From positions 1-64,000 of the forward strand of contig MU004195.1 in NCBI GenBank assembly GCA_010093605.1: 64,000 nucleotides of DNA. The letters are read 5' to 3'. The notes under the pieces were generated by a model, which worked only from the letters and a program-made list of their open reading frames with translations, was not told the DNA's origin and ran no database searches. This stretch comes from Lophium mytilinum. Lineage: Eukaryota. Below, one piece after another: positions 28,029-60,618 of the stretch. The translations under genes and the position numbers were made by a program. Position 1 is the stretch's first letter; every line of letters begins with the position of its first letter.

Positions 28029-28621
28029 GACGATGTTTGCATAGCGTGGGTCTGGGTTTGATTGGGAGTTTTGGGTATATCAGGCTGCATTGGTGGTCAC
28101 TATGGACTGGTTCAACATGGGATATAGATTTCTGGCTCAACGCCACCGTTTGAAGCACCTCAACTACATTGCTTCACAATATATATTTTCAACATTCCGA
28201 GTACAGATATGAAGCTTGCTTTTAGTCTTAACCAGAGTGAATTATGAATCTACTCTTACTCTGCCAAGCTCTACAGATCAGCCTTCCTCGCCGTTCATTT
28301 TGAAAATGTAGAAAACATACGAACCGTCCCCCGGGCGAATGAGTCGAAAATGTGCCGATACGCTTTCACCTGATGCGGATTTGAAACGTGTGGTGTTGAG
28401 TTATGAGAGCGGTGCAGGGGTCGAGAGGCTCCGCTTTTCGCTTGCAAGTTCCCTGGCCATTTCAACCAGCCATCTTCCTTCAGGCCTTCATCTTCACCTG
28501 CAACCCCACCGCCACGTCCTTAATCACCCACGCAACGCACACCTCTCGCTGCGAGAGCCTAAACTACCAACAGAAGAGTTCAATCCTTCCGATCGCGAGG
28601 AGTCGGCCCTCAGCATCCAAC

Positions 28622-40618: not shown

Positions 40619-41314
40619 TGCACTGTTTCATCCGCTATTGACAATACATAGGATAGATCTAGCCTGAATGTTACAATGTGGCACAGCACACCTACAGGTG
40701 CTCTGCGAATATACGCTCGTCCTACTGCTTTTTTAGCGATACTTCCTCGTGATATTCTCTAATTGCCGAAATTATCAATTGATCTAAAGCGTTACGTTCT
40801 CCATCGCTACTTATATCTCACTCCTCAAAACAGCCACAGAACGCCATCGATTCGTCTGAGAAAGCGTGGACTCCCAAGAACATGGCCTGAAAGCTACAGT
40901 CTCAACGAACTCTTCTATCGTCGTGGACCGATCCGCGAAGGAAGTTCATCCTGTTGAGTGTGGCCTTGGTATGGGCAAGATGCGCTAGCCAAATTCAGCT
41001 TGTCCGGGATCTTGTTGCGAGCCCAAAACAAGGGGCCAACGAACCTCAGATCTCCACTTGGCACCAGCGCTTTCTCAACGCTCAATATCCAAACCTCTTT
41101 GCAACAAATAAAGGCTTAGGCCGTGACAACTACCGGTCGGCGCTAGTCTGGGGGCGGCACCAGTGCTACTTTCAGTGCACCGTTATGGCCAGCCTCGATT
41201 CTACCTATATGACAGACTCTGATGTGGATATATCGGTCATCAGTACTTCTACCTAGACCACCCCCAATATACCCTGGTAGCCCACGAAGAACACCCTTCG
41301 CAAAAGAAAAAACT

Positions 41315-42562
41315 ATGCCGGCAGTTCCAACAGCAACCTCAGTTCCGCCCATTGGCCCTGCAGTCCCGAAGCTCCGATCCTCTTGTGATAGCTGCGGAAA
41401 TGCCAAAGTTAAATGCGATCGTGATCGACCCAAATGTGGTCGCTGTGCTACTCTCGGCTTGCCCTGTGTCTACGGGCTATCGCGCCATTTTGGCAAACCA
41501 CCGAGGAAGAGGCTTACCACAGATCTTGATGAAGGGACCGCCAGATGCAAAAAACGAACGACACGTGTTGACCAGAGTCGCAGCAATTATATTGCCTTGG
41601 ACTATACCCGGCCCCAAAGTATGAACGATTCCGGACAGCTTGTACTCTCCAATCCAACGACAGATATCCCTTCATCTACTTCCGACCTCTCAAATCCGTT
41701 GCGTTTGGACGAGCAGAGTCAATTCATCTCGGCCTTTTCCCCCTCATTGTTCTTTGATGAATGGCCTCAGCTGGAAAATTTCGAATTTGGCATTGATATT
41801 CCCTCAGTCGCAAAGAGTCCCGCCACAGAGGCCCGACCATCAGCTTCCGCATTAGAGCCCATCAACTCGAGGATAGACTCTACCTCTCGAAAGCCCCACA
41901 GCTGCCCACGGGAGTCGTACGAGATTTTTCGGGATTTGATCTGCCCTGCGCCTGACCTACACGCACCCGAAGCAAATTCGGATCCCGTCTCAGCACGACT
42001 GGACCAGGTACTTTGCTGCACCAGAAATGCCATCGATCGTCTTTCGCAGCTTCTAAGATGTCCATGCGCCAGCTCCGGGCACCGGGTCATGGTACACGCC
42101 TCTTCTATTGCCCGAATACTGATGTGGTACCAACAGGCTGCGGGGTGGACCTGCAGTAATGCCTGGCAGTCTCGGCCGTTAGCACTGGCAAGCTCGCCAA
42201 CGTCGGGCAGTGCGTCTCCATCTTCGCCGCCTTCATATGATACAGGGGCCAGCACAGATACAATAAGCACACCCACACTGGCTCAATGTACTGGGTTTGT
42301 GGTTGAACATGTGCCTGTTTCAATGGGGGCGTTCAGCATCGAAGATCAGAATATGCAGGCTGCATTCAAGACCCGGTTGGTTTTGAGCGAGCTTAAAAGG
42401 ACTGCTAGCTTGATTGAACTCTTTATATCGCAAGGCTCCTGCGAACCCTCCGCCAATGGTATCGCTGGCTTGCATACACATCTAGGAACATGGCTCCGGA
42501 GTGAGCATTCTCGAACTGTCGAAACTTTGACGGCGAAGCTTAGTGCTTTGAACGACATCTAG
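41315..42562 (+). CDS. AflR/GliZ-like Zn(II)2Cys6 transcription factor
   Basis: KLRSSCDSCGNAKVKCDRDRPKCGRCATLGLPCVYGLSR; C-terminal LSQLLRCPC...ILMWY...VSMGAFSIE...LVLSEL, typical of AflR-type regulators. Confidence 0.85.
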   Translation: MPAVPTATSVPPIGPAVPKLRSSCDSCGNAKVKCDRDRPKCGRCATLGLPCVYGLSRHFGKPPRKRLTTDLDEGTARCKKRTTRVDQSRSNYIALDYTRPQSMNDSGQLVLSNPTTDIPSSTSDLSNPLRLDEQSQFISAFSPSLFFDEWPQLENFEFGIDIPSVAKSPATEARPSASALEPINSRIDSTSRKPHSCPRESYEIFRDLICPAPDLHAPEANSDPVSARLDQVLCCTRNAIDRLSQLLRCPCASSGHRVMVHASSIARILMWYQQAAGWTCSNAWQSRPLALASSPTSGSASPSSPPSYDTGASTDTISTPTLAQCTGFVVEHVPVSMGAFSIEDQNMQAAFKTRLVLSELKRTASLIELFISQGSCEPSANGIAGLHTHLGTWLRSEHSRTVETLTAKLSALNDI

Positions 42563-42692
42563 ATCTACTTTAATCTAAATCGGATAAACCGGGCTTGAAG
42601 CCAATATGTCACATAGTCCTCAATTATGGGCCGTTGAATAAGGAATTCGATTTGAGGGAATGAAAAGGCAGTGCGCGCATTGGCCGCAGTTT

Positions 42693-42703
42693 TCGGGAAC
42701 CGA
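42693..42703. promoter_or_regulatory. TCGG-N3-CCGA (= TCG-N5-CGA) AflR/GliZ-type site
   Basis: tcgggaaccga lies ~215 bp upstream of the NmrA-like ATG, with TATAAAA at ~42818. Confidence 0.55.
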
Positions 42704-42918
42704 TGGAGAAACCCCATTGGCTGAGTCGCTGCTATCCAGAACAAGCGATCCTAGATGCTTCAAAACACAACAAGTGATTTTCTGTTCGATTAGACTTGGG
42801 TACTGAGCTGGGTTTTCTATAAAAAGCGGAGGTCAATCCCACTTCTTAATAGTAAATAGATCTCGTCAGCACACATTTTTCCCTTCATTCATTTTTCATA
42901 CCTCACCACTCAAGCACA

Positions 42919-44142
42919 ATGGTCAAGATCGCAATAGCTGGTGGCTCGGGTGGTACGTAACTTTGCATTCCAAACGAGAAAAAATAGAGCTAACTTTACA
43001 TCCAGAAGTTGCCAGTGAGGTCATCGACGCTTTGGTAACCGCGAAGAAGCATGAGATTACTATCCTCAGTAGGAGGGTGAGTATTTACCCTTGGCCTTCG
43101 TTTTTCCACAGCAATCTTACTTAGGCGGCACAGAAAGCTCCTATCGGGGACAAAAGGGAAGGATTGTCATGGCGAGTTGTAAACTACGACGACAAGAGCG
43201 AGCTGATCGAAGCCCTCCAGGGAATTCACACCGTCTTGTCTTTCATTCAGCTCCTGACGGATCCGAATCAACAGGCCCAGAAGAATCTGATCGATGCTGC
43301 CATACTTGCCGACGTGAAGCGATTTGCTCCCAGCGAATATGGAAGGTGAGCCAGCGAGTCTCCCTGGGATAGATCAATACTTACCGTCTGCAAAGCGCAA
43401 CCACAGTAGATATGCCCTGGTGGGCTAGAAAAGATGCCGTCCAAGAGTACCTGAAACAAGTCAACGAGAGTGGGAAGGTAAAACCCAATCCCACATTCTA
43501 TGACGGTCGCATCGTTGCTGATTCCGCCGCTCAGACAATCGAGTATACCCTTTTCCAGCCAGGCATGTTTCTGGACTACCTGGCATTCCCATACAAGACG
43601 GCTAGACATCTTACTCCTCTAAATACGATGATTGATTTTGAGCACCGGCGTGCAGTTATCGTTGAAGGCCACGACGCCATCATGACTTTCACCACAGTCC
43701 AAGATCTTGCTGCAGTTGTAGCGAGAGCAGTTGACTACGATGGAAAGTGGCCCGTCATTGGTGGAATCAGTGGCAACAGAGTCCCCATTTCGCGCATTCT
43801 CGAGATTGGTGAGAAAGTTCGAGGTTGGTCTCATCCCACCCATCTGAAACATCGTCGAGCTGCTCTCATAATGTCACAGGTCATCCATTTACCATTGGAA
43901 AGGTGAAAGTGGAAGATCTTGAGGGCGGAATTCTCAATACTTCGTGGTCGCTCGAAACGAGCCATCCAAGCGTCTCTGGAGAAGAGGCCACGAAATTGTT
44001 GAAAGCTGTCCTCATTGGTACCCTATTAAGCTGCGCAAAGGGTGCCTGGGATGTGTCGGATGACTTCAACCAGCTTTTACCAGATTTCAAGTTCACGCAG
44101 ATCGAGGACTTCCTCGCCAAAGTCTGGGAGGGAAAGCCGTAG
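42919..44142 (+). CDS. NmrA/isoflavone-reductase-like NAD(P)-binding oxidoreductase
   Basis: MVKIAIAGGSG, NLIDAAILADVKRFAPSEYG, EYTLFQPGMFLDY, FTTVQDLA; multiple introns. Confidence 0.88.
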
Positions 44143-44312
44143 TCGTAGATGTGTGATAGGCGAAGTCGCTCGCAGTGCCGGCCGGCGAATTTGCCGTGGC
44201 GGCTACACATGTTACCAACATCAACACATACTTTCTCACATACAACCTCATCAAAGCGTCGGAGTCTCTCACCACCTCTTGTAAAGCAAGCACATTGAAG
44301 TCACACCTAGCT

Positions 44313-45039
44313 ATGGCTGACATCTCCCCTGCTGATTATCCCGAGTACACCGAGAACATTTCCAACAAATCCCAGCCTCCACTCGGCTTCGGGACCCGCC
44401 CAGCCCTGATCATTGTCGATGCTCAAAAAGCTTACTGGAGTCCTGATTCGCCTCTCGATTTCAGCTCTTATGAGAATGCCGCCGCTGCTCCTGCCCACAT
44501 CAAGACCCTCGTTTCCTCCGCTCGCTCTGGAAAGTGTCCCGTGATATGGTCTCGGATACAATACGAGAACGCATCACTGAGGGATGCAGGCTTATGGGCG
44601 AAGAAGAGGAAGCACCTAGACTGTTTCCTGTCCAGTGATTCGAGGGGTCTAGGAGACTGGATTGAAGGACTTGGCCCCGAAGGAGACGATGTCGTTATTA
44701 CGAAGAAGTTCGCGAGCGCATTCTTCGGGACAACACTTGCGACACAATTACAGATGCTCAACGTAGACACCTTAGTGATTTCTGGTGCGAATACGAGCGG
44801 ATCCATCAGACAGACAACACTGGACACCATGCAAAGCGGGTTTAGACCAATCGTAAGCTATGATTCTATCCTCTCAGCTCGTCACGAGGTAGCTAACTTA
44901 CGTTTCAAAGGTTGTAGCAGCGGCTTGTGCTGATCGGTCTCGAGAGACTCACTTCGCGAATCTGTTCGATATTCGGGCAAAGATGGGAGATGTGATTGCT
45001 GTCGATGAAGCTTGCAAACAGCTGGAGAAGGGTTGGTAG
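44313..45039 (+). CDS. Second isochorismatase-family protein, nucleophile Cys replaced by Ser
   Basis: LGFGTRPALIIVD, KKFASAFFGT, GANTSGSIR; intron 44853-44910; exon 2 ends at stop 45037-45039. Confidence 0.88.
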
Positions 45040-45539
45040 CGAGGCTGCAACCAAACTATCTTTGCGAATATACCACTCTTCTGGCACATTTCTGACTTGC
45101 CTCACATTTGTACAACTTGATCGCTGCTCTAAAAGCTCGCCCAGGGACCCTTGTCTGACGCAATCTGTAAGCGAATATACGAATTCACGTACTCCCCAAA
45201 GGTTACAGAAGGCCTCATGCTCTGTCACCTTCGGGTTCGATGACTGACAGACTGTACGCCGAGGGCCTAGCAAACAATTGAATACCCAACCTCTTGGCCC
45301 AATCAACTCTCCATTGAAGTCATCCGCCCCGCTGCCCCACCTTCGTACAGCAGCTTGATGCGCCTTAACGTGCCGTCGGAGATAGGCGCCACCATCCCGA
45401 TCAGGCGGCCAAAGTGCCGGCCGGGAGATACCAAACCATCACTCACATCTATCATCATGCACCGAATGCCTAGAAATACTAGCCAGGTACTATCACACAA
45501 CAGTAAAGACGAATTGGCATTACTCGCTTTTTCTTCAAA

Positions 45540-47478
45540 ATGGTGCTTCCTCTGAACGTGGTGACTTTGACGGCAGCTCTGCTGCTAGTTGGTGTCTGCT
45601 ACAAGCTTTACACCAAGCTTTTCGCGGGCAAATACCCATTACCGCCTGGACCAAAGGCGCAGTTCTTGGTTGGGCACTATGGTATCGTCCCGGCTGAAGG
45701 ACCGCAGTTTCAGTACGCCAAATGGTCGAAGGAGTTGAGTGAGTACATCCATAGTCAGGAGCGAGAAGAGGTCACGTGCTTTCCATATCCTACTCGAACG
45801 ACCGCAAATAGCAACGCTTGAGAACAAAGCGACAGATTGCTTGTGGTGAACATTTAAGGGGCTAACGACAAAACTAGATACCGATATCCTGTACTTCGAG
45901 TCCTTTGGCACAAAATGGATTGTACTCAACAGCCTCCAAGCGTCTATTGACCTTCTAGATAAACGGGGGAATAACTACAGTGATAGACCGCGTTTCATCA
46001 TGAATGATCTGTCAGTCTACTTTTCCTCAACCTTCAAATCGATGCAACCATGTTTTTTTGCATTCAATGAAGGTCGTTCTACCCCCAAACTGACCTCACC
46101 CACAGCATGGGCTGGGCACCAACGCTCACCTGGCTCCGCTGGTCCCCTAAAATGCAGCAACACCGCAAACTCCTCCAGCCTCCATTCTCCAAGTCGAAAG
46201 TCTCCCAATACTGCCCCCTCCAGCGCCGCGAAGCTATCAAAGCCGCCCAATCCATCCTCCGCACAAATGCCGACCCCATGGCCTGGAACAACGCCATCCG
46301 CCGCTTCGCCGTCGCCGTGGTCATAAACATCGGCTTCGGCGTCGAAATCAAAGACGACAAAAGCCCCTATATCAAAATCGCAGACGAGGCCGCGATGGCA
46401 ATCAGCAACGCAGGCGCCCCAGCGAGCAGTATCGTCGACCGATTCCCCGCCAGTGAGCACCCCTATCCCTCAACCCACCCCTTTCCTTTCTATTCCATCT
46501 AACCCTAACGCCCCCCTTCAGCTCGCTTCCTCCCCTCCTTCCTCCCCTTCATGGAGCGCAAACGCTACGCCGAACGCTGGCGCTACGCCATCGAAAACAT
46601 CACCAACATTCCCTTCGCGGCGACCATCGCCGACCTCGCCGCGAACCGCCGCACCAACTGCTTCGCCGCCGACCGCCTCTCGATCCACGCCTCCAACGCC
46701 GAAAAAGGCATCCCAAACGACTTCTCCCTCGCCGACATCAAGGGCGCCGCTGCCGCCATCTACATCGCCGGCAACGACACCACGCAGACCACCATCGCGC
46801 TCTTCGTGCTGTACCTCATGCAGCACCCGGCCGTGCGCGCGAAAGCGGTCGCCGAGATCGACCGCGTGGTCGGGAGCGAGCGGCTGCCGGAGTTTGCGGA
46901 TATCCCGAACCTGCCGTATTTGAATCTCGTGCTGCAGGAGTGCTATCGCATGAATCCGTTGAGTCCGCTGGGGATCCCGCATGCGAGTGTCAAGGATGAT
47001 GTGTATCGGGGGATGCGGATCCCGGCGGGCACGATTGTGTACCAGAATGTGTGGGCGATTACGCACGATCCGGCGGTTTATTCGCGGGCGTTTGAGTTCT
47101 GGCCAGAGCGGTACTTGAGTGTGGAGGAGGGGGGGAAGGGGGAGCCGTTTCCGGTGGGGAATTTTGGGTTTGGGAGGAGGGTGTGCATTGGGCGCAATCT
47201 GGCCGAGAATAGCATGTTTATGATGTTTGCGGTTGTGTTGGCGACGGTGGAGTTTGGGTGGCCGTTGGGGCCGGATGGGGGGGAGGAGGAGTATGAGATT
47301 GAGTGGTCGTTTAAGGGACAGGCGTCAGTACTTCTCTTTTGTCGATTTGACGAGAGGACAGATGCGAGAGAGTAAAGGCTGACGTTAACGCAGACACCCG
47401 CTACCCTTCAAATGTAGGATGGCACCGCGGAGTGCGAAGGCAGAGGCTTTGCTGATGAATGCGGACTTGTCGACTTAG
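45540..47478 (+). CDS. Cytochrome P450 (OrdA/CYP64-clan-like)
   Basis: N-terminal anchor plus PPGP, YSDRP, AGNDTT, ECYR, WPERY, FGFGRRVCIG; last exon ~47394-47478. Confidence 0.92.
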
Positions 47479-47768: not shown

Positions 47769-48468
47769 TCAATACGCTCTCCTTTTACTGTCATCCCCTG
47801 CTACAAAACGCACCGGCACGAAGTAGTCATACATCTCCCCAGCAGTGTAGTACCCACTCGTATGATCCAACACCCCAATAGCCCACTGCCCCGTCCTCTG
47901 ACTCCCACTAATGGGGTAAAGCGTCACATTCGTATGGTAACCTACCACCAACAACGTTAGCATTGCTTTCATATAAGATCTGACCACTCACAAGCAATCA
48001 CATTAACAGCAACAGAAACAAAGCTAATAAAGCACAAAGCGGGTGAAATATGAGTGACGAAAAAGAAAAGGGCGACTTACCATACTCATCCTCCGGCTGC
48101 AGCGCATGCACTGCCTCCTCCCCACCAGTGAACTTCCCGCACGGGGTGGTGGTGCACGGGTAGGCGACGATGTCGATGTCGATGGTGTGGGTTTTGAAGT
48201 AGGCGCCGGAGCAAAAGGTTAGGTTGAAGGGCTGGCGGGGTGGGTTAGCTTCTTCTCATCGAGGTACCGTTATACCGGAAGAAAGCGAGTGAGAGGAGGA
48301 GAGAGGGAATGGAGGGACGGGGAAGAGATAGAGATCACCCACCTGGCCAAGCGTGAGAGTAGCATTAGCCGCAGGACTCATGATCCCGCTGCGGCCGACC
48401 TCGCATTGCGTCGCGGCTGTTACGGCGGCGAGGAGGAATGTCGCACATAGCGAGCGTACGGAAAGCAT
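47769..48468 (-). CDS. Small secreted protein (149 aa, 4 Cys in the mature part), effector candidate
   Basis: Exons 48468-48343, 48231-48081 and 47941-47769 splice in frame; signal peptide MLSVRSLCATFLLAAVTAA. Confidence 0.75.
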
Positions 48469-49170
48469 GGTTGCTAGTTGCCAGTATCTGGGTGCCGGGT
48501 GGTGGGTGCTAGTAGCTGGTTGCTAGTTGCTAATCGCAAAGTAGTGTATCTCTCAACCGTAGGTCGTAGGTCGTAGGTTGAGTCACAAAATCCAGCGGAA
48601 GCAAATTTATAAAAGCACGTCCGTCAAGTGAATGCCACACAAACAATCAAAGTCCCCGTTTTCTTTCTTTCTCGGAAACCACTCCGCAGCATCCCTTCCC
48701 TCTTTATCTCTGCAATCAAAACGCATCCGCGGCCCCACCCGCGTCGCGGCGCTGATCTTTGCCGATCCCGCAGGCACGCCCCTGGGCACCGCGTGTCGAT
48801 CGCATGGGTGGAGGGGAGGGATCTTCAGGTACGTCCTGCTGGGGTGTAGCATTGCAGCTGTCCCTTGATGTTTCGTGGGAGGATGGGGCAGGAGCGACCG
48901 GACGGTAATGCGGGTGCGGAGCGGTGTGGGTGGGTTGACGGGGGGTTCTCGGGATCAACGGGCAGGGGGAGGTCTGTGGTGGGACGTGAGCCGAGTGAGT
49001 GCATTGGGGGCTATTTAGGGAGTGAGGAGAGAGGGGCGAGATGTCGGGTGATTTTTGGGTGAGATGGATGAAGGGTTGTATGGGGTGATTGGGTAGTTGG
49101 GTTGGAGTCGGGGTTGTGGGGAATCAAATCTTAGTCTAGAAGCGCGAGAGTGTTTCTATGGGGTCTGCCG

Positions 49171-49741
49171 ATGTATTAGAGGACCTCACACAGCGTTTTA
49201 CGAGCGGAGATGCAATAAAGAGCAAGGTCTAATAATGGATGCGCAACGTAACATGATCTTCGGGATTTCAAAGCTTACCAAAGGACCTCATGCAGCGGTG
49301 TATGAGCGTATTGAGCTTCCGTGTAACTATAGATGTGGAGATAATGATAAATAGGTACTAGTCTCCAGGACTTCAGGAATGTATTGGAGGACCTTATACA
49401 GGGGTCTACGAGTACAGTTTCTGTAGTCATTGAACATACCTCCTAGTGTAAGTATAGAAATAAACTTTTTAGATAATATCGTGATATTTGTAACCCCATT
49501 AGAGGACTCCAAGCAGCGGCCTACTGGTGCACGTAGATCTTTTCTAGGTTACGGTGCGATCAAGGATACGAGAATGTTACTCATGTTACTGATTTAGAAA
49601 CTCCATCGAGGGACCTCAAACAGTGGCCCACGATGGTAGATATACCAATCTCATGGCATCGTTTAATCAAACACATAAAAATGTCAGTTCATTCAGCACA
49701 TTTAAGAACCCATCAGCGGAGGTCAGACAGCGGCAAACGAG
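49171..49741. repeat. Array of six degenerate 34-bp direct repeats separated by unique 68-81-bp spacers
   Basis: Units at 49171, 49273, 49379, 49494, 49601 and 49708 align without gaps around GGACCTCA-NN-CAGCGG-NNN-ACGAG. Confidence 0.8.
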
Positions 49742-49881
49742 TGCAATAGAAGCAGTTCCGATGCATCATTCATTCATTATAAACTACCATAATCCCAATT
49801 AACTCCTCGCTCAGCAATCGCTCGCAGGCGCTCGCTGATGCATGCATTACCATGACCATCATTACCGGTGTTTCCACCCCC

Positions 49882-52161
49882 TCACGGCAACATAAAGCCA
49901 TCCCCACTAAGCTCATTCTCAGTCTCAATGCCGAAAGTCCCCTCGAGTGCCTCCAACACCTTCGCGTCAGCTACACCCCTCTTCTTCAACCCACTGCCCC
50001 CCAGCGTACGCGTAACATCCCGCTTCTCGCGATACCCCTGCTTGCCATACGGCACACACTTCCCCTTGCCGCCCCACTGCGCATCCGCGACCCCCTTCCA
50101 GATCTCCGTCGCATCCACCGTCATTTCCGGCGTGTAGTAGAGCCGGCAGTCCGCCTCCTCATACTGAAACTGCAGCGGCGTGCCACTCTTATCGCCCTCA
50201 CGCAGCCCATCACGGACATTCACCCCCGGCGCCGTTGCGGCGCGTGCAAACGGTGTGTCAGAGTAGTAGTCTTTCAACACGCTCTCGTTATACCGCTGCG
50301 CCTCCTCCGGTGCCGCGAGCATGACCGCTTCCTGCGCGAGCTGCTGGATGTAGCCCCACTGGTAGTTGTTCGTGCCTTTGACGCCGCCGACGGCTTGGAT
50401 AGGGTTGGAGTTAGCGCGGCCGCCCATGGCGATGGCTTTGACGCCGGCTTGCTGCCGCATCAGCTCCGAGAAGATGGTGCAGGTGGAGGCGCAGTAGCCG
50501 TCGTAGACGATGACGATGTCGGCGGCGTCGAAGGACTGCTGCGTGAAGTTGGCGCGGGGGCCGTAGCCGGTGATGTTGATGCCGCCGGAGTTGTAGGTGA
50601 TGAGGACGTCGGAGAGGTTCCAGCGCGCAATGCCGGTGTAGTTATCGCCGTTGTACACGCGGGGGGAGTACTTTTCCGGCCAAGAGGTGAAGGGTTCGTA
50701 GTTGACGTCGGCATCGGTGTGGTAGTCGAAGTAGGAGGACTGCACGTTGAGCACCGTGCTGTTGATTGTGTTCAATGTTCGAGGGTATTTTGAGGCCAAA
50801 GCGCTGTAAGACTGGCCGACGAGATCGGCTGCTTCGTGCGCACGGAAGCGAGTGGCGCCGTATGGCAGAATGTTGGGGAATAACTGCTTGAACAAGTCGT
50901 AGCCCTGCAGGATGGTACCCCCGCCATTGGCTGAAACGTCGACGATCAGCTTCTTCTTGCCGTCTTTAAGGGCTTTGGCGACAAAGTTCTGCGTTGTCTG
51001 TTGGAAGGGAACCTCAGCGGCCTCGTTTCCAACGAAATTGGGAACAGAGAGAACAGCCACGTCTTCGTAGCCTGGCGAATCGATGTAGTAGCCGTTTATG
51101 AGGTTCAATGGGCCCTGGACGACGATAGGGGGGTACCCAGGAGGGGAAACAGTGGTTGCTGCTGCTGCTGCCGCCTCGACAACACTGCTGGGGGTTTCAT
51201 CCCCGGGGCTGGCTTCGATGTTGACATTTCCTCCCGTAGCTTGGCCGGCATTGGCGAAATAGAAGTACGTATCCCGTAGCTTTTCGCCAGAATCTATGCC
51301 CCTCATGCTGACCAACACGCGAGCGTAGTTGTCAATAGTTCTTGATGTGCCGTTCGCAAACGTAAAGGTAGTCGTTGCGCCAGGCCATGCCCATCGACCA
51401 CGACCACCGCCTGTGAAGGTTCCGGTACCACTGCCAGAAGTACCAAGAGAGACTTGGGCGAGTTCGTAGAAAACGTTGTTGTAGAGGGCGTCTCGGTCCT
51501 GGAGAGATCCCCATTGGCTCCAATCCTCAAGGAAAGAGGCTGCGTCTTTGCCGTCAATCTTCACAATAGCAGAGGGAGTGTAGGTAATGTTCTTGAAATG
51601 TTGGCCTAGCACGTCGGCGTAGGCGAAGACTGCGGGCACCTTCAAGCCATCTTCAGAAACAGAGACCAGGGGAACGGTGCGGCCAAAGTTGAAGATGGAG
51701 CCGACAGAGTCCGGAACAAGCGAGAAGTGGCCATCGTGGGCTGATTGGACCAGCTGATACAGCGCAAAGCCGAACTCATACTCGCCCTTGAAGGCTCCGC
51801 TGTTGACTTTGGCCTCGATGTCGTCCAAGCCGGCGAAGATGTCCACGGCTTGCTGAACCTTCTCCTTGTACTCGGCAGGCGGGTTCTTGAGGAAGGCTAG
51901 GGTACTCTGCCAGTTGATATACGGCCGAATGTCTCCTAAGAGCTTCTTGGCGGAGGTGACGTTGAGCGGCACGCTCTTGATGCAGTCGTAGGCCAACTGC
52001 GCTGGGACCGTGGGGACGGGATTAGTCTGGGCGAAATAGGCAGATGACACAGCAGCACATGGGGCTGTGTTGTTGGTGGGAGTCGCCCGAGTGTCAAGGA
52101 TTGGGCTCGCAGAAGCGACGGAGAAGAGCCCAATGACGGCGGAGAAGGTGGTGAAGCGCAT
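49882..52161 (-). CDS. Secreted peptidase S41 family protein (fungal CPAF-like)
   Basis: Signal peptide MRFTTFSAVIGLFSVASA; AHDGHF, QDRDALYN, DVSANGGG, DGYCASTC, QAVGGVKG, PLQFQYEEADCRLYYT. Confidence 0.9.
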   Translation of the reverse strand: MRFTTFSAVIGLFSVASASPILDTRATPTNNTAPCAAVSSAYFAQTNPVPTVPAQLAYDCIKSVPLNVTSAKKLLGDIRPYINWQSTLAFLKNPPAEYKEKVQQAVDIFAGLDDIEAKVNSGAFKGEYEFGFALYQLVQSAHDGHFSLVPDSVGSIFNFGRTVPLVSVSEDGLKVPAVFAYADVLGQHFKNITYTPSAIVKIDGKDAASFLEDWSQWGSLQDRDALYNNVFYELAQVSLGTSGSGTGTFTGGGRGRWAWPGATTTFTFANGTSRTIDNYARVLVSMRGIDSGEKLRDTYFYFANAGQATGGNVNIEASPGDETPSSVVEAAAAAATTVSPPGYPPIVVQGPLNLINGYYIDSPGYEDVAVLSVPNFVGNEAAEVPFQQTTQNFVAKALKDGKKKLIVDVSANGGGTILQGYDLFKQLFPNILPYGATRFRAHEAADLVGQSYSALASKYPRTLNTINSTVLNVQSSYFDYHTDADVNYEPFTSWPEKYSPRVYNGDNYTGIARWNLSDVLITYNSGGINITGYGPRANFTQQSFDAADIVIVYDGYCASTCTIFSELMRQQAGVKAIAMGGRANSNPIQAVGGVKGTNNYQWGYIQQLAQEAVMLAAPEEAQRYNESVLKDYYSDTPFARAATAPGVNVRDGLREGDKSGTPLQFQYEEADCRLYYTPEMTVDATEIWKGVADAQWGGKGKCVPYGKQGYREKRDVTRTLGGSGLKKRGVADAKVLEALEGTFGIETENELSGDGFMLP

Positions 52162-55100: not shown

Positions 55101-55985
55101 AGTAAGCTTGTTTTACATCCTATCTGGTGAAAAGGCATAGCTGAGCTCAGTTTCTTTCCCTTTTTGCGACGTTTAGAGCATGACGATTAGTAGGCCAAGG
55201 TCAATATTTTCTTGGGAGGGGCATAATAGGTTTCATCATTCACCTACATTTCAATTGGCTTGTGTTGCGGGTAGAAGTTTCTTCACTCAGATCACGTGCT
55301 GTTTTAACTCTTGTCTTTAGGCAGCTAAGTAGCACCTTGCAAAGGTATAAAGATCACAAAAAACGTCACCACTACGCTCTTGCTGGCTGTTGGCCTTATC
55401 CTCTGTCGAGGGTGGTCCGTGTGCGCGATAATAGGGCCTACTAGTCGGGGACATCGCCTTGGTTTTAATTGGGTAGCTCATGTCCTACAGCGTTTGGCGG
55501 CGTCCAGTAAACTAACGTGGAGATCAAGCCGCAGAACTTGGCTATAAAAATGAAATAATGGAGAAAGTACTTCGCCTCGCGGTACTGCACTCTCAGCAGA
55601 GCTAGCTCGGCATAAGTAAGAAAGTCCAAAAAAACGCTTCCTCCGTTTCACTACCACCTGTTACATCTGTGGCTTCAAGTCTGCGTTAGTTCACCGGACA
55701 CAGCAAGACCCTGTAGGTACTTATAGCTGGAGCCTTCCGCCAGTACCTGGTTGGCTCGGTGCCTTATCCGCCAAGGCGTTATCGTCTGCCTTGACCGGTC
55801 AGATTCTTTGCGCCTCCAATCCGAAGACCCCACGTCATGCAAAGTGTAATGTACAAAAAGTAAGGCTCATACCCGTTGCCCCTTTTTCAGTAAGCCCCGC
55901 TAATCGTATCTCAGGCGTGAGACAACGACAGAGTGCATTCTCTACATTTCAAAAGAAGACCAGACTTTTTCTACCGGGACTTCAA

Positions 55986-58176
55986 ATGGCTTCATACACA
56001 TATCAGAAGCTAGATGTCAGCAACGAAGAGATCCGGTTAATCAGTTTGATACCTGGCAAGGCGGACGATGACATCCTTTCCAGCATCTTCCACGCTCCAC
56101 TCATTCCTCCACAAGCGAAAAGTAACGCGTATCGACCGTCGCTTGAAGAAGTGGAGCAGACGCTTCCAGAAGACTGGACAGTCCAGGAAAATCTAGAAGG
56201 GCGTTATTTGTTCATCCAACTTGGGACCTCCGGAAAACCAAACTCGTGGACGCATCCCGATCCAAGCTTTGACAACAGCTCTGTAGATTTCAAAATACAG
56301 CAGCCGTTGCCAGACTTTGAACCAAAATATGATGCTTTGTCCTATCCGTGGGGCCTTGCGATCAACCCAGTGACGGCGCACATCCTGGATCCGTCTTCGA
56401 AGCAGCACCAAACGGATATTCAGATAGGATCAAACCTCGCCTGCGCCTTGCGGCATCTTCGATATAATGACCAACCACGAACTTTGTGGATAGATGCCGT
56501 TTGTATCAATCAAAGCGACATGGACGAGCGGAATGCGCAGGTGAAGCGTATGGGGATGATATACTCACTTGCTCGAAAAGTTGTAATCTGGCTCGGTCCG
56601 GAAGCCGACGACAGCACACATGCCATATCTACTCTCGTTTACTTTGGAAAGCAGGTCGAATACTTCACAAGTGAGAAAATCGGCGACAGTCCAGGGGCCA
56701 CGGAGCCGAAATGGTGGAACCCGGTATGTCAACTACCATATGACGAAAGAACTTGGTCTAGCCTGGTTGCTCTCTTCCGCAGGCCGTGGTTCAGTCGTGT
56801 TTGGGTTCTCCAAGAAGCGTTGCTCGCGAATCAAAAAGCAGAGATCCAATGCGGCGACGCATTTTGTCCTTGGACCACTGTGCAAAAAGCTATACAGATT
56901 CTTCCTGGGAAGGCTGGTGTTCCTCGTGAAGTGGCCTCTTCAATCACTTCGTACAGAAATGCTCTTCTCGGGGGGGTGAAAAGGAGTTTCACACGTCTCA
57001 TGTTATGGGCGACTTACCGCCATTGCACTGACCCCCGCGACAAAGTTTACGGCGTACTCAGCCTGCTCTCTCCGTTGATTCAAAACAAAATCGAACCGCA
57101 GTACTCGATACCCATGTCCCAGGTCTACATGACTACATTCCTCGTGTATTTGAATCACGTAAAACGCTTGGAGCTACTGGATCAGTGCACTCTTGGGGAT
57201 CGATGCGACGGACTACCTTCTTGGGTACCAAATTGGGCTATCAGCGGTGGTGTTTCCTCTGGTCATATAATACAATACGTAAGGCAGCCATCGGGCCTAT
57301 CAGCTGCTCATGCAAAGCTACTGTCTTCAGATACCTTGGAAGTAGTTGGTAAACGTTGCGCTCGAATCAGCTCAGTCAACAGCAGTACGTCTGATGACAC
57401 GGCCGACATCCTAGCAGCCATCCGTCTGTGGGAACCAGAAGGCCTCCAAACGAAAACGTATGTCTCGGGGGGTTCCTTGCTCGACGCCTTTCTCGAAGTG
57501 GTTGTTCAAGGGCGGACAAGAGAAAGGTGCCCGTACGCCCGCAATTTCCCAACCCTCGCGGAGCTTCGAAAAGAGTATCAGGAGTTGCTTTTGGGAAATC
57601 CAGCTCATGGAGAGGGACTGTCGTATTTGAAGCGTTTCTCGACAGTCCATATGTTGTCACTATTGACTACCCGAGAAGGTTATCTGGGCGTCGGGTCGCA
57701 AGGGGCCAAAGAGGGTGGGTTGTTGCGCGTCGAGAATCACCACGATTGCTAATATCAGCCTAGGTGACTTTGTGTGTGTTTTGCTTGGTTGCAACCGGCC
57801 AAAGCTATTGCGGGAAACAGCCTCTGGCGATTTCTTAGTCGTCGGAGACTGTTTCTTTCACGGTTTGATGGATGCAGAGAGCCTTCTTGGTCCTCTTCCG
57901 GTTCATCTCCGAATGGAATTGCTGTGTCCTGATGGCTTCTATGAAACGGCTTTCTACAACGCTTCGACTAAGGAACGTTCGACTGAAGATGCCCGCCTCC
58001 CATCGCTATCACCCGAGTGGGAGATTACCCAAAGAGAGCGCACTCAAGACGATCCCTTCTTCTTTAGAGAGTTTAAAAATCTAATCACGGGCGAAACTCT
58101 GACGTCAGATCCAAGGATGCTTCCTGGGGCTTTGGAGCAACGAGGTGTCACGCTAGACACATTTCGACTGGTGTAA
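55986..58176 (+). CDS. HET-domain (HET-6-like) heterokaryon incompatibility protein with WW-like modules
   Basis: EIRLISL, YDALSYPWG, LWIDAVCINQ, ERNAQVKRMGMIY, PWFSRVWVLQE, CTDPRDKVYG, LPSWVPNW; intron 57715-57763; GDFVCVLLGC and VVGDCFFHGLMD. Confidence 0.92.
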
Positions 58177-58962: not shown

Positions 58963-60618
58963 TGTCAGGGAGTAGCGGTGAGGGCTACGGCAGGCACGTG
59001 TTACCTCTTGTATATAGCCTCACCTTCCTCCAGACCTCTCTCTCTCCTACACACATCATCATCTAATACATCACGTACACGGCATACAGCTCCTTGTTCC
59101 ATAACAGTTAGTAGCTGAGCAGTATTAATCTAAAGATCTCTTAGAAAAAAATACCTACCTACCTACACTCTTTATTCTATAGCAGCACTAAGTATAACTA
59201 CTCTTCTAAGACTTTACTCTATAGCAGTATTATCTACTTTTTATACGCTCTATTCTATAGCAGCGCTATAGATAATTCTCTATTAACTACTCTTTTAAGA
59301 CCTTACTCTATAGTAGTATTATCTACCTCTTATATACTCTATTCTATAGTAGCGCTATAGATAACTCTCTATTAACTACTATATACCTAACTACTCTTTT
59401 AAAACCTTACTCTATAGTAGTATTATCTACCTCTTATATACTTTATTCTATAGTAGCACTATAAATAACCTCTTCTAACCTATTACTATTACTATTACTA
59501 TTAATATCGCCTATTCTTAGTTAGTAATAAATAACTTTTATATTATTAATACCTTCTATAGTAAATTTCTCTATTAATACTCTACTAGTATACTATATAC
59601 GCCTTATTTAATTTATATAGTTTCTTTACCTCTATAGTATCTACTTCTCTTTTTCCTACTTTATTTTTATTTTAATAGGTAGTAGATAGAGACGCCTACT
59701 ATTCTTTAGGGCGGTAACTATTAAAGAGTAGTAGTAAGAGCTATAGTAGGTATATATTACCTCTTATATATAGTCTTATCTTTTTCTAGACCTTTCTCTC
59801 TTCTATATATATTATTATCTAATATATTATATATATAGTATATAGCTTCTTATTCTATAATAGTTAGTAGCTAAATAGTATTAATCTAAAGATCTCTTAA
59901 AAAAAAATATCTACCTATCTATACTCTTTATTCTATAGCAGTACTAAGTATAACTACTCTTCTAAGACTTTACTCTATAGTAGTATTATCTACTTCTTAT
60001 ATACTCTATTCTATAGCAGCGCTGTAGATAATTCTCTATTAACTACTCTTTTAAGACCTTACTCTATAGTAGTATTATCTACCTCTTATATACTCTATTC
60101 TATAGTAGTACTATAGATAACTCTCTATTAACTACTATATATCTAACTACTCTTTTAAGACCTTACTCTATAGTAGTATTATCTACCTCTTATATACTTT
60201 ATTCTATAGTAGTACTATAAATAACCTCTTCTAACCTATTACTATTACTATTACTATTAATATTACCTATTTTTAGTTAGTAATAAATAACTTCTATATT
60301 ATTAATACCTTCTATAGTAAATTCCTCTATTAATACTCTACTAGTATACTATATACGCCTTATTTAGCCTATATAGTTTCTTTACCTCTATAGTACCTAC
60401 TTCTTCTTTCCCTACTTTATTTTTATTTTAATAGGTAGTAGATAGGGACGCCTGCTATTCTTTAGGGCGGCAACTATTAGGGAGTAGCGGTAAGAGCTAT
60501 AGTAGGCACGTATTACCTCTTATATATAGCCTTACCTTTCTCTAGACCTCTCTCTCTTCTATATATATTATTATCTAATATATTATATATATAGTATATA
60601 GCTTCTTATTCTATAATA
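58963..60618 (+). mobile_element. Tandem miniature LTR retroelement (TRIM-like): LTR-internal-LTR-internal-LTR
   Basis: 144-bp repeats at 58963-59106 (TGT...ACA), 59719-59862 and 60475-60618; two homologous 612-bp internal segments; flanks ccctc and ctctc resemble a 5-bp target-site duplication; PBS-like tagtagctgagc after LTR1. Confidence 0.85.
59197..59470. repeat. Three ~80-bp subrepeats inside the TRIM internal region (present again at ~59953-60226)
   Basis: actactctt(c/t)taagac(t/c)ttactctatag...tattctatag(c/t)agc(g/a)ctata recurs at ~59197, ~59285 and ~59390. Confidence 0.75.

Follow-up and report, generated by a model that had tools for sequence, protein, structure and literature searches.

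A six-unit repeat array in a Lophium mytilinum intergenic region: a probable relic of a MITE family with a genome-wide subterminal motif

The six-unit repeat array at 49171..49741 is probably, at a rough probability of 0.72, a relic of a family of non-autonomous DNA transposons (MITEs) with hundreds of copies in the genome. Its core is the subterminal motif of these elements, the length of their end module equals the pitch of the array, and such elements duplicate internally in tandem. The array itself is a derivative of a MITE and not an element: it retains right-end remnants only, no more than a 9-bp trace may remain of its left partner, and neither an intact left end nor a target duplication was found around it. 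All coordinates refer to the window, i.e., the whole stretch of DNA analysed, which makes up the initial 64 kb of contig C15; the genome searched is the 43.4-Mb assembly in 49 contigs. The sequence-only reading of this region had named a match to a transposon as the finding that would speak against its account, and such a match is largely what we observe, though we found no description of the element.

The window holds six cores of 34 bp with start-to-start distances of 102, 106, 115, 107 and 107 bp, separated by spacers of 68, 72, 81, 73 and 73 bp, just as the sequence-only reading had placed and measured them. Any two cores are 56-82% identical. Scored with a leave-one-out matrix, the cores attain 22-33 bits each and the best other position 9.3 bits, and besides the six cores none of the 127,934 positions on both strands of the window reaches 22-33 bits; the array is therefore far beyond chance. 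Tandem Repeats Finder does not report it, and a BLAST search of the genome with the complete array as query, which is too insensitive at such divergence, returns the self match only. When the matrix is trained on loci outside the window only, the motif (positions -12..+34) is found on the plus strand in unit 1 at 49169..49214 (GGACC start 49181; 25.0 bits), unit 2 at 49271..49316 (start 49283; 33.5 bits), unit 3 at 49377..49422 (start 49389; 17.2 bits), unit 4 at 49492..49537 (start 49504; 34.6 bits), unit 5 at 49599..49644 (start 49611; 29.2 bits) and unit 6 at 49706..49751 (start 49718; 23.7 bits), where a weak TIR remnant follows. The nearest relative of unit 3 is unit 1, and the two are mutual nearest neighbours among 180 other sites. 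Outside the array, the best plus-strand site of the window attains 5.1 bits with a matrix trained without the window, compared to 17-35 bits for the cores. A solitary degenerate copy lies on the minus strand at 28125..28170 (14.0 bits); no second copy occurs 95-115 bp from it, and there is no array at this place. A possible 9-bp remnant of an inverted partner motif at 49102..49110 on the minus strand has the canonical 71-bp spacing and is weak, as its first nine positions give 8.3 bits, the full 23-mer gives -31, and the surrounding DNA is G/T-rich and of low complexity.

Further early observations on the array held in part. The region is not heavily mutated by RIP (TpA/ApT 0.98 vs 1.7 in RIP blocks), and it contains no credible ORF, its four open frames of 69-85 aa being without a Pfam match. 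The cores, the spacings and the RIP state were described correctly; the unrelatedness of the spacers and the repeat as a one-off were not, and the weak dyad symmetry noted in some cores is not shared by the units. The consensus fold of the cores has 0 pairs, and 12 single-unit folds have z values from -2.05 to +1.72. As to the repeat being confined to this place, a first core pattern had 59 matches in the genome vs 3 for the reversed control, and a refined pattern has at least 620 vs 0 for the control, so that the proposed scan of the genome with a core profile did find further copies and arrays, and the core is a genome-wide repeat.

For a closer view of this motif of about 45 bp, 55 loci were scanned with a matrix, which yielded 175 motif sites, 146 of them less than 72% identical to each other; the loci were chosen by pattern matches and are not a random sample. 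The informative span is approximately -12..+34, with a consensus near AAAcnnnTnGRG GnACCYCARRCRGYGGYRAACNAGTGTAC. Trained on the six window units and nothing else, a covariance model matches MITE-A, MITE-B and other arrays with E values of 9e-8 to 0.097; the search gave 21 matches outside the window in 9 out of 10 loci and nothing else within it. Only 32 of the 175 sites are located inside ORFs of at least 150 aa, compared to a locus coverage by such ORFs of 46%. Outward-facing motif pairs show preferred distances: 34 out of 49 are spaced 60-61 or 70-71 bp, the others 79-80, 94, 101-103 or 132-137 bp. The phase concentration of these spacings is R = 0.72 at 10.5 bp (22 clusters), a signal of helical phasing that is suggestive only, since each of the two main spacing classes may stem from one event. 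At L066:386-1479, five diverged inverted pairs stand in tandem, each spaced 60-61 bp, an arrangement which we take to resemble bacterial REP/BIME clusters. A TA duplication at the end of the motif proper was also considered and rejected, as conservation continues past the TA into the TIR. Exact-pattern scans of metagenome and viral contigs gave 0 matches, and exact scans of this kind show little.

The motif sits within non-autonomous inverted-repeat elements (MITEs) of about 230 bp, where it adjoins a 28-bp TIR. The source family is shorter than 600 bp, non-coding and of high copy number, and it has TIRs as well as target-site duplications. MITE-A (~230 bp) has 28-bp TIRs starting with CAGT and comprises 383 candidates, 40 of which were scored, at 82-100%; its TIR has 243 matches vs 0 for the control. 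A 2-bp duplication was seen in 11 of 16 copies examined (9 TA, 2 TC), with 5 unmatched. One motif copy abuts the right TIR of MITE-A; about 93 bp to the left of this copy there is a second one, inverted and degenerate. From TCTAATC in the interior through the motif to the end of the TIR, MITE-A measures 108 bp; this right module of 57 bp interior, motif and TIR has the pitch of the array. Family C exhibits a related TA-flanked end and carries three motif copies. MITE-B, again of ~230 bp, has a 28-bp TIR starting with CACGC (154 TIR matches vs 0 for the control) and, in five assessable pairs, a 5-bp duplication that is exact in three, has one mismatch in one and is absent in one. Examples are L082:989-1221, L064:710-942 and L057:5076-5291, which with their CAC termini and 5-bp target duplications are Transib-like; to our knowledge, such a MITE is unexpected in an ascomycete. 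The TIRs of A and B have only the inner GGCACAC and the terminal CA in common, and the motif pair is present in both.

The array is tied to these elements by the sequence that surrounds its cores. After the motif of unit 4, a decayed 28-bp TIR (49527..49554, plus strand) lies in register with the right end of MITE-A; positions +29..+53 of the unit fall at the 99.9th percentile of the window background, and the best match of the remnant among 68 sites is the MITE-A end (z 4.2). A second decayed 28-bp TIR, after the motif of unit 5 (49634..49661, plus strand; 99.8th percentile), is family-C-like, with the family-C left end as its best match (z 5.0). The TIR part of unit 6 reaches only the 86th percentile, and a significant remnant is thus present in two of the six units, with units 1-3 and 6 below significance. 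Judging by their match to the family matrix, the spacers (49215..49705, plus strand) each combine a decayed TIR with approximately 56 bp from inside the MITE: the stretch of 48 bp that precedes the motif (-60..-13) matches a matrix from other loci only, with a Stouffer z of 4.07 against shifted registers. Four out of five spacers bear a weak resemblance to an array on contig C13, which is nonetheless greater than that of any of 40 control segments, while spacer 2 is unlike the C13 units (mean z 0.15). Among themselves, two of ten spacer pairs align above shuffles (1-4 with z 5.0 and 4-5 with z 3.3; mean z 1.27). The claim that the spacers are unrelated to one another is therefore not upheld.

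These findings bear directly on the layout that had been called CRISPR-like, or taken for a polycistronic small or guide RNA. Cores of 34 bp with spacers of about 73 bp do superficially give this picture, and yet the repeats are only 56-82% alike rather than near-identical, and the spacers, instead of being foreign, are in part homologous among themselves and with MITE sequence. The core occurs at 620 or more dispersed sites, within MITEs; the array as a whole has, by BLAST, no genomic match other than itself. There is no shared fold (0 consensus pairs) and no Rfam family: the sole match in the window (E 0.3) is below threshold and outside the array, and seven related loci gave 0 matches. No cas or nuclease gene is among the seven neighbouring ORFs scanned. 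We consider a CRISPR-like or small-RNA array very improbable, and the MITE reading removes this false lead. A decayed gene for a repeat protein (ankyrin-like), or an exon/intron repeat, is hardly tenable either. As read from the sequence, differences between cores tend in part to recur every third base in one of the frames, and units 1-2 share one 85-aa open frame; against this, four out of five pitches are not multiples of 3, the four frames have no Pfam match at E values up to 1, and the core is also found in inverted pairs as well as in MITEs that contain stop codons. MITE context, frames without a Pfam match and out-of-frame pitches refute this reading.

The window array is not the only one of its kind. 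Arrays with a pitch of 107/108 bp occur in three places beyond the window. On contig C13, one array (L077) has 12 units with pitches of 97-135 bp, mostly 107/108, and a second one of 5 units in inverted orientation lies 5.1 kb away; contig C7 carries three units of 107/108-bp pitch, and contig C1 has an array of five units with a pitch of 170 bp. A pitch pattern of 108-108-108-97 recurs in both C13 arrays, and these were therefore copied as blocks. Young internal duplications of 100-150 bp are seen in MITE-A copies at L054, L056 and L061, four tandem interior units at L060, and duplications of 111/112 bp within a family-C element at L067. By eye, the duplicated MITE interiors at L060:40-720 and L061:250-700 look AT-richer than single copies, as if RIP may act once short repeats become linked.

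Within the window, the units share 7.07 non-consensus states per pair, compared to 3.52 +/- 0.71 for random sites (0 of 20,000 draws); their overall motif identity is only marginally above that of random sites (0.571 vs 0.512, p 0.059). Since they share local variants, the six units were most likely amplified at the locus. The same variants argue against a serial insertion, in which independent, already diverged MITE copies would have inserted within or next to one another, each time at the same internal TA and in one direction, and would have lost their left halves, and the cores would be alike because each copy had been selected as a transposon. Such a course would give unrelated spacers and conserved cores without selection in place. 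It would also suit the TA that MITE-A has at the unit boundary, the different ends of unit 4 (family-A-like) and unit 5 (family-C-like), and the existence of whole copies in tandem (three at L055, three pairs at L018, five pairs at L066). On the other hand, the window contains no stack of left halves, five events in the same direction would be needed, and the C13 arrays were copied as blocks. We regard serial insertion as unlikely.

The two C13 arrays (G000:C13:1537919-1545200; L077, L086 and L087), of 12 and 5 units and 67% alike, face outward around 5.1 kb with an alpha/beta hydrolase and a GH76 gene; the block is possibly a composite element or an inverted duplication. This arrangement, together with the quantised spacing of inverted pairs, might suggest that the motif is a site for site-specific recombination, with the arrays as cassette stacks or foldback-type termini of gene-carrying elements. 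Here, the spacers are homologous pieces of a MITE and not cargo, the array has no partner array within the window, and no recombinase is among the seven neighbouring ORFs scanned. Local hopping or inverted duplication also accounts for the C13 block. A recombination site therefore seems improbable.

We propose that a MITE once sat in the gap between a gene for an S41 peptidase and a small gene. Each unit of about 107 bp would be the right module of this element, i.e., about 56 bp of interior, the subterminal motif and the 28-bp TIR, and this module would have been copied head to tail at the locus by slippage in gap repair or by unequal exchange, possibly begun by breaks at the element end. Mechanisms of the slippage and unequal-exchange kind have been reviewed for tandem arrays of MITEs (PMC12628747). 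The left end would then have been lost, and the spacers would have drifted near saturation. The core is a putative binding site, most likely of a transposase or of a TnpA-like accessory protein that pairs the ends. It may have outlived the spacers for one of two reasons: re-copying was confined to units that carried the motif, or binding is still of importance at this locus.

In the window array, identity is 0.71 in the cores and 0.53 in the spacers (gapped), with 0.51 for shuffled spacers; the ungapped comparison of units 4 and 5 gives 0.59 in the core vs 0.44 in the spacer. That the cores are held tighter than the spacers, as had been noted at the outset, also holds when positions are classed by their information in the motif: identity is 0.70 at informative vs 0.47 at uninformative positions (permutation p 0.018). 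The contrast between core and spacer does not merely result from picking the best stretch, since the conserved span coincides with a motif defined elsewhere. In other arrays, the values for informative/uninformative positions are 0.65/0.41 (p 0.006) for L058, 0.67/0.55 (p 0.087) for L077, 0.67/0.51 (p 0.11) for L072 and, register-corrected and without a p value, 0.66/0.45 for L087. Informative positions are thus better conserved in all five arrays, significantly so in two out of four permutation tests. C4, C11, G13 and G15 are invariant in all 12 L077 units; the core vs spacer identity of this C13 array is 0.64 vs 0.63 with gaps, i.e., without contrast, and 0.65 vs 0.49 without gaps. Plain neutral decay does not account for the contrast between cores and spacers.

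The bases of the motif that RIP would target, CpA and TpG, are spared. When columns 11-12 and 14-15 were ignored in the site search, 145 sites showed CA 101, CG 29, TA 4 and TG 3 times at positions 11-12, and TG 79, CG 52, TA 8 and CA 3 times at positions 14-15. At both CG positions, decay runs in one direction (101:3 and 79:3). Conservation after duplication, sparing from RIP, a shared motif and spacing classes together point to a putative protein-binding site under selection, which may act either for the element or for the host. At dispersed sites, selection on transposing copies suffices to explain the conservation; in the arrays, conservation requires repeated motif-dependent re-copying or a present function.

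The latter alternative deserves attention. A MITE origin followed by exaptation shares its starting point with the reading preferred here and differs in the cause that keeps the cores: a host protein, perhaps a domesticated DNA-binding domain of a transposase, would bind the motif, and the array would be a phased promoter or boundary element separating the 3' end of the S41 gene from the gene for the small secreted protein. Of the candidates named by the sequence-only reading, phased protein-binding sites thus stay plausible, informative positions being kept in the array; its interpretation survives in the tighter cores and fails for the CRISPR-like array and the polycistronic RNA. The better-kept informative positions in all five arrays, the spared RIP-target bases, the rarity of motif sites in ORFs of at least 150 aa and spliced contigs that reach to 49119 and start again from 49758 are consistent with exaptation. 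However, the genome-wide pattern is explicable by selection on transposing elements alone, and gene avoidance is expected of any insertion. Relative to the downstream gene, the window array and the one at L077 have the opposite direction and that at L072 has the same one, and two of the four permutation tests are non-significant, where decayed end units would be missed. We therefore regard exaptation as possible and somewhat doubtful. In its widest form, which we put forward tentatively, MITEs of two target-duplication types would have spread a putative site of about 45 bp to many hundreds of intergenic places, in phased inverted pairs and arrays of about ten helical turns, with selection after the death of the element; this would amount either to a network exapted by the host, e.g., for a domesticated transposase, or to the end signal of an undescribed CMCT/RAG-like lineage in Ascomycota able to make gene-carrying composite elements out of paired arrays, as C13 would suggest. 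Should the conservation after duplication reflect real selection, the motif would provide a case, accessible to testing, in which the end signal of a transposon has been retained or recruited throughout the genome of a fungus.

Fungal MITEs and MITE-derived tandem arrays are already known; the motif-centred family described here is apparently not. It is undescribed in the literature searched, with Repbase, Dfam and most subscription journals outside this scope, where it may be catalogued. In the main text of PMC12910237, the words 'MITE' and 'TIR' are absent. The MITEs of Epichloe festucae (Fleetwood et al. 2011, PMC3227409) have TIRs of 10-116 bp, several with TA duplications. In the parts of that paper considered, they are, like the elements here, short, degenerate, high-copy, below the length threshold of RIP, often near genes and mostly with no discernible parent element; unlike those here, they show no internal motif shared across families and no one-end tandem arrays, and the word 'subterminal' is absent from the main text. 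Tandem arrays derived from MITEs, and tandem insertions of DNA transposons, are exemplified by Xstir and miDNA4 of Xenopus (PMC12628747). As here, their repeats come from the MITE interior, and MITE, array and composite forms coexist. Xstir and miDNA4 are animal sequences, and 'fung' occurs 0 times in the review; the present arrays are short and lie between genes, with the motif retained and the spacers near saturation. The genome described here would hold an abundant fungal MITE system that evades RIP by its shortness and repeatedly yields short tandem arrays in promoter gaps.

Regarding function, the motif most likely works like the TNPA sites of CACTA elements. The subterminal repeats of CACTA/EnSpm are bound by TNPA (PMC2613891), and short TIRs with asymmetric direct and inverted subterminal motifs are common to both, those of CACTA/CMCT being protein-bound; the motif here spans about 45 bp vs 12-17 bp in CACTA/EnSpm. 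CA..TG ends and target duplications of 2-5 bp are shared with the CMCT clade (EnSpm, Transib, Plavaka, ESTA) as given in PMC12730594; families A and B both have them, and this is a weak criterion. Two TIR stretches of the MITEs were not found in the supplement of that paper. With Transib/RAG, MITE-B has in common the CAC start and the 5-bp duplications, and the spacing classes of the motif lie roughly a turn of the helix apart, as do those of RAG signals under the 12/23 rule (PMC1131882). Unlike in the Transib/RAG ends described there, the MITE-B TIR has no CACAATG heptamer with a nonamer 23 bp further on, and MITE-A carries the motif and yet has 2-bp duplications. A motif common to 2-bp and 5-bp elements, together with a one-turn spacing, would, if true, suggest the existence of a transposase or accessory factor that merits a search.

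The TA duplication and CAGT start of MITE-A are shared with Tc1/mariner-pogo elements, and local pogo-type relics start with TA|CAGTA; these relics have only the first five bases in common with MITE-A and lack the motif. Unlike the strict TA of Tc1/mariner-pogo, 2 of 16 MITE-A copies duplicate TC, and family B duplicates 5 bp. A plain Tc1/mariner parentage, which was our first reading, is weakened by the 5-bp duplications of family B, and judging from their ends, CA..TG with 2-bp or 5-bp duplications, the elements would fit the CMCT clade as well as Tc1/mariner. No autonomous element with these TIRs or with the motif was found at the 12 DDE_3 loci examined (of 14), at 10 of 10 DDE_1 loci or at 8 loci of Plavaka regions, for which reason the transposase as binder stays putative. 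Near one of the DDE_3 loci lies a MITE-B that seems unrelated to it, and another contains a single weak motif copy. These searches give lower bounds and covered DDE_3, DDE_1, Transposase_21 and Plavaka; PF02992 had 0 matches in the genome, and its control likewise gave none. Sixteen RIP-broken Plavaka matches were obtained, and eight of these loci are without a visible motif, the element ends not being reached.

Several other transposons came to light in the course of these searches. A multi-copy, RIP-broken Plavaka-type element (L088-L095; G000:C12:223100-232900 and others) has copies that are 88-93% alike over more than 3.4 kb. At L033:723-2017, a short Tc1-type element has a perfect inverted repeat of 52 bp (TA included), one stop in DDE_3 and a GC content of 0.57; it is young and little touched by RIP. 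At L045:236-3384 lies a pogo-type element that is possibly an intact transposon: a frame of 426 aa runs over DDE_1 without interruption, and the inverted repeats measure 46 bp.

The array is placed between the 3' end of the S41 gene and the start of a small spliced gene, both on the minus strand. The S41 gene (49882..52158), with its 3' end toward the array, encodes a secreted peptidase with a CPAF-like PDZ domain and Peptidase_S41 (Pfam E 2e-39 and 8e-6), whose best named relatives, in Lepidopterella, Glonium and Mytilinidion, are 65-71% identical, which places the host as a Dothideomycete close to Mytilinidiales. On the downstream side of the array, the small gene (47769..48468) has three exons and, as read from the sequence, a signal-peptide-like N-terminus; exons 2 and 3 have no Pfam match. 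A contig of run X3, which was taken as RNA by guess and in which spliced joints are present, spans 47900-49119 with two CT..AC joints and reaches about 650 bp 5' of the ATG (48469-49119), a leader with five upstream ATGs; a second X3 contig spans 49758-50900 at the S41 gene. Contigs of run X4 from a related species align to coding parts only. Neither run has contig cover at about 49120-49757, and this uncovered stretch says nothing either way.

Further features of the window are a small secondary-metabolism-like cluster at 41213-47375 (an AflR-type Zn2Cys6 regulator, an isochorismatase, a cytochrome P450 and an unassigned ORF) and a HET-domain gene at 55620-57752. AT-rich blocks of RIP type occupy 1-7.5 kb and 59.2-64 kb; in the latter, the RIP-mutated part at 59195-60299 contains tandem repeats of 89 and 104 bp and is duplicated as a block at an offset of 756 bp.
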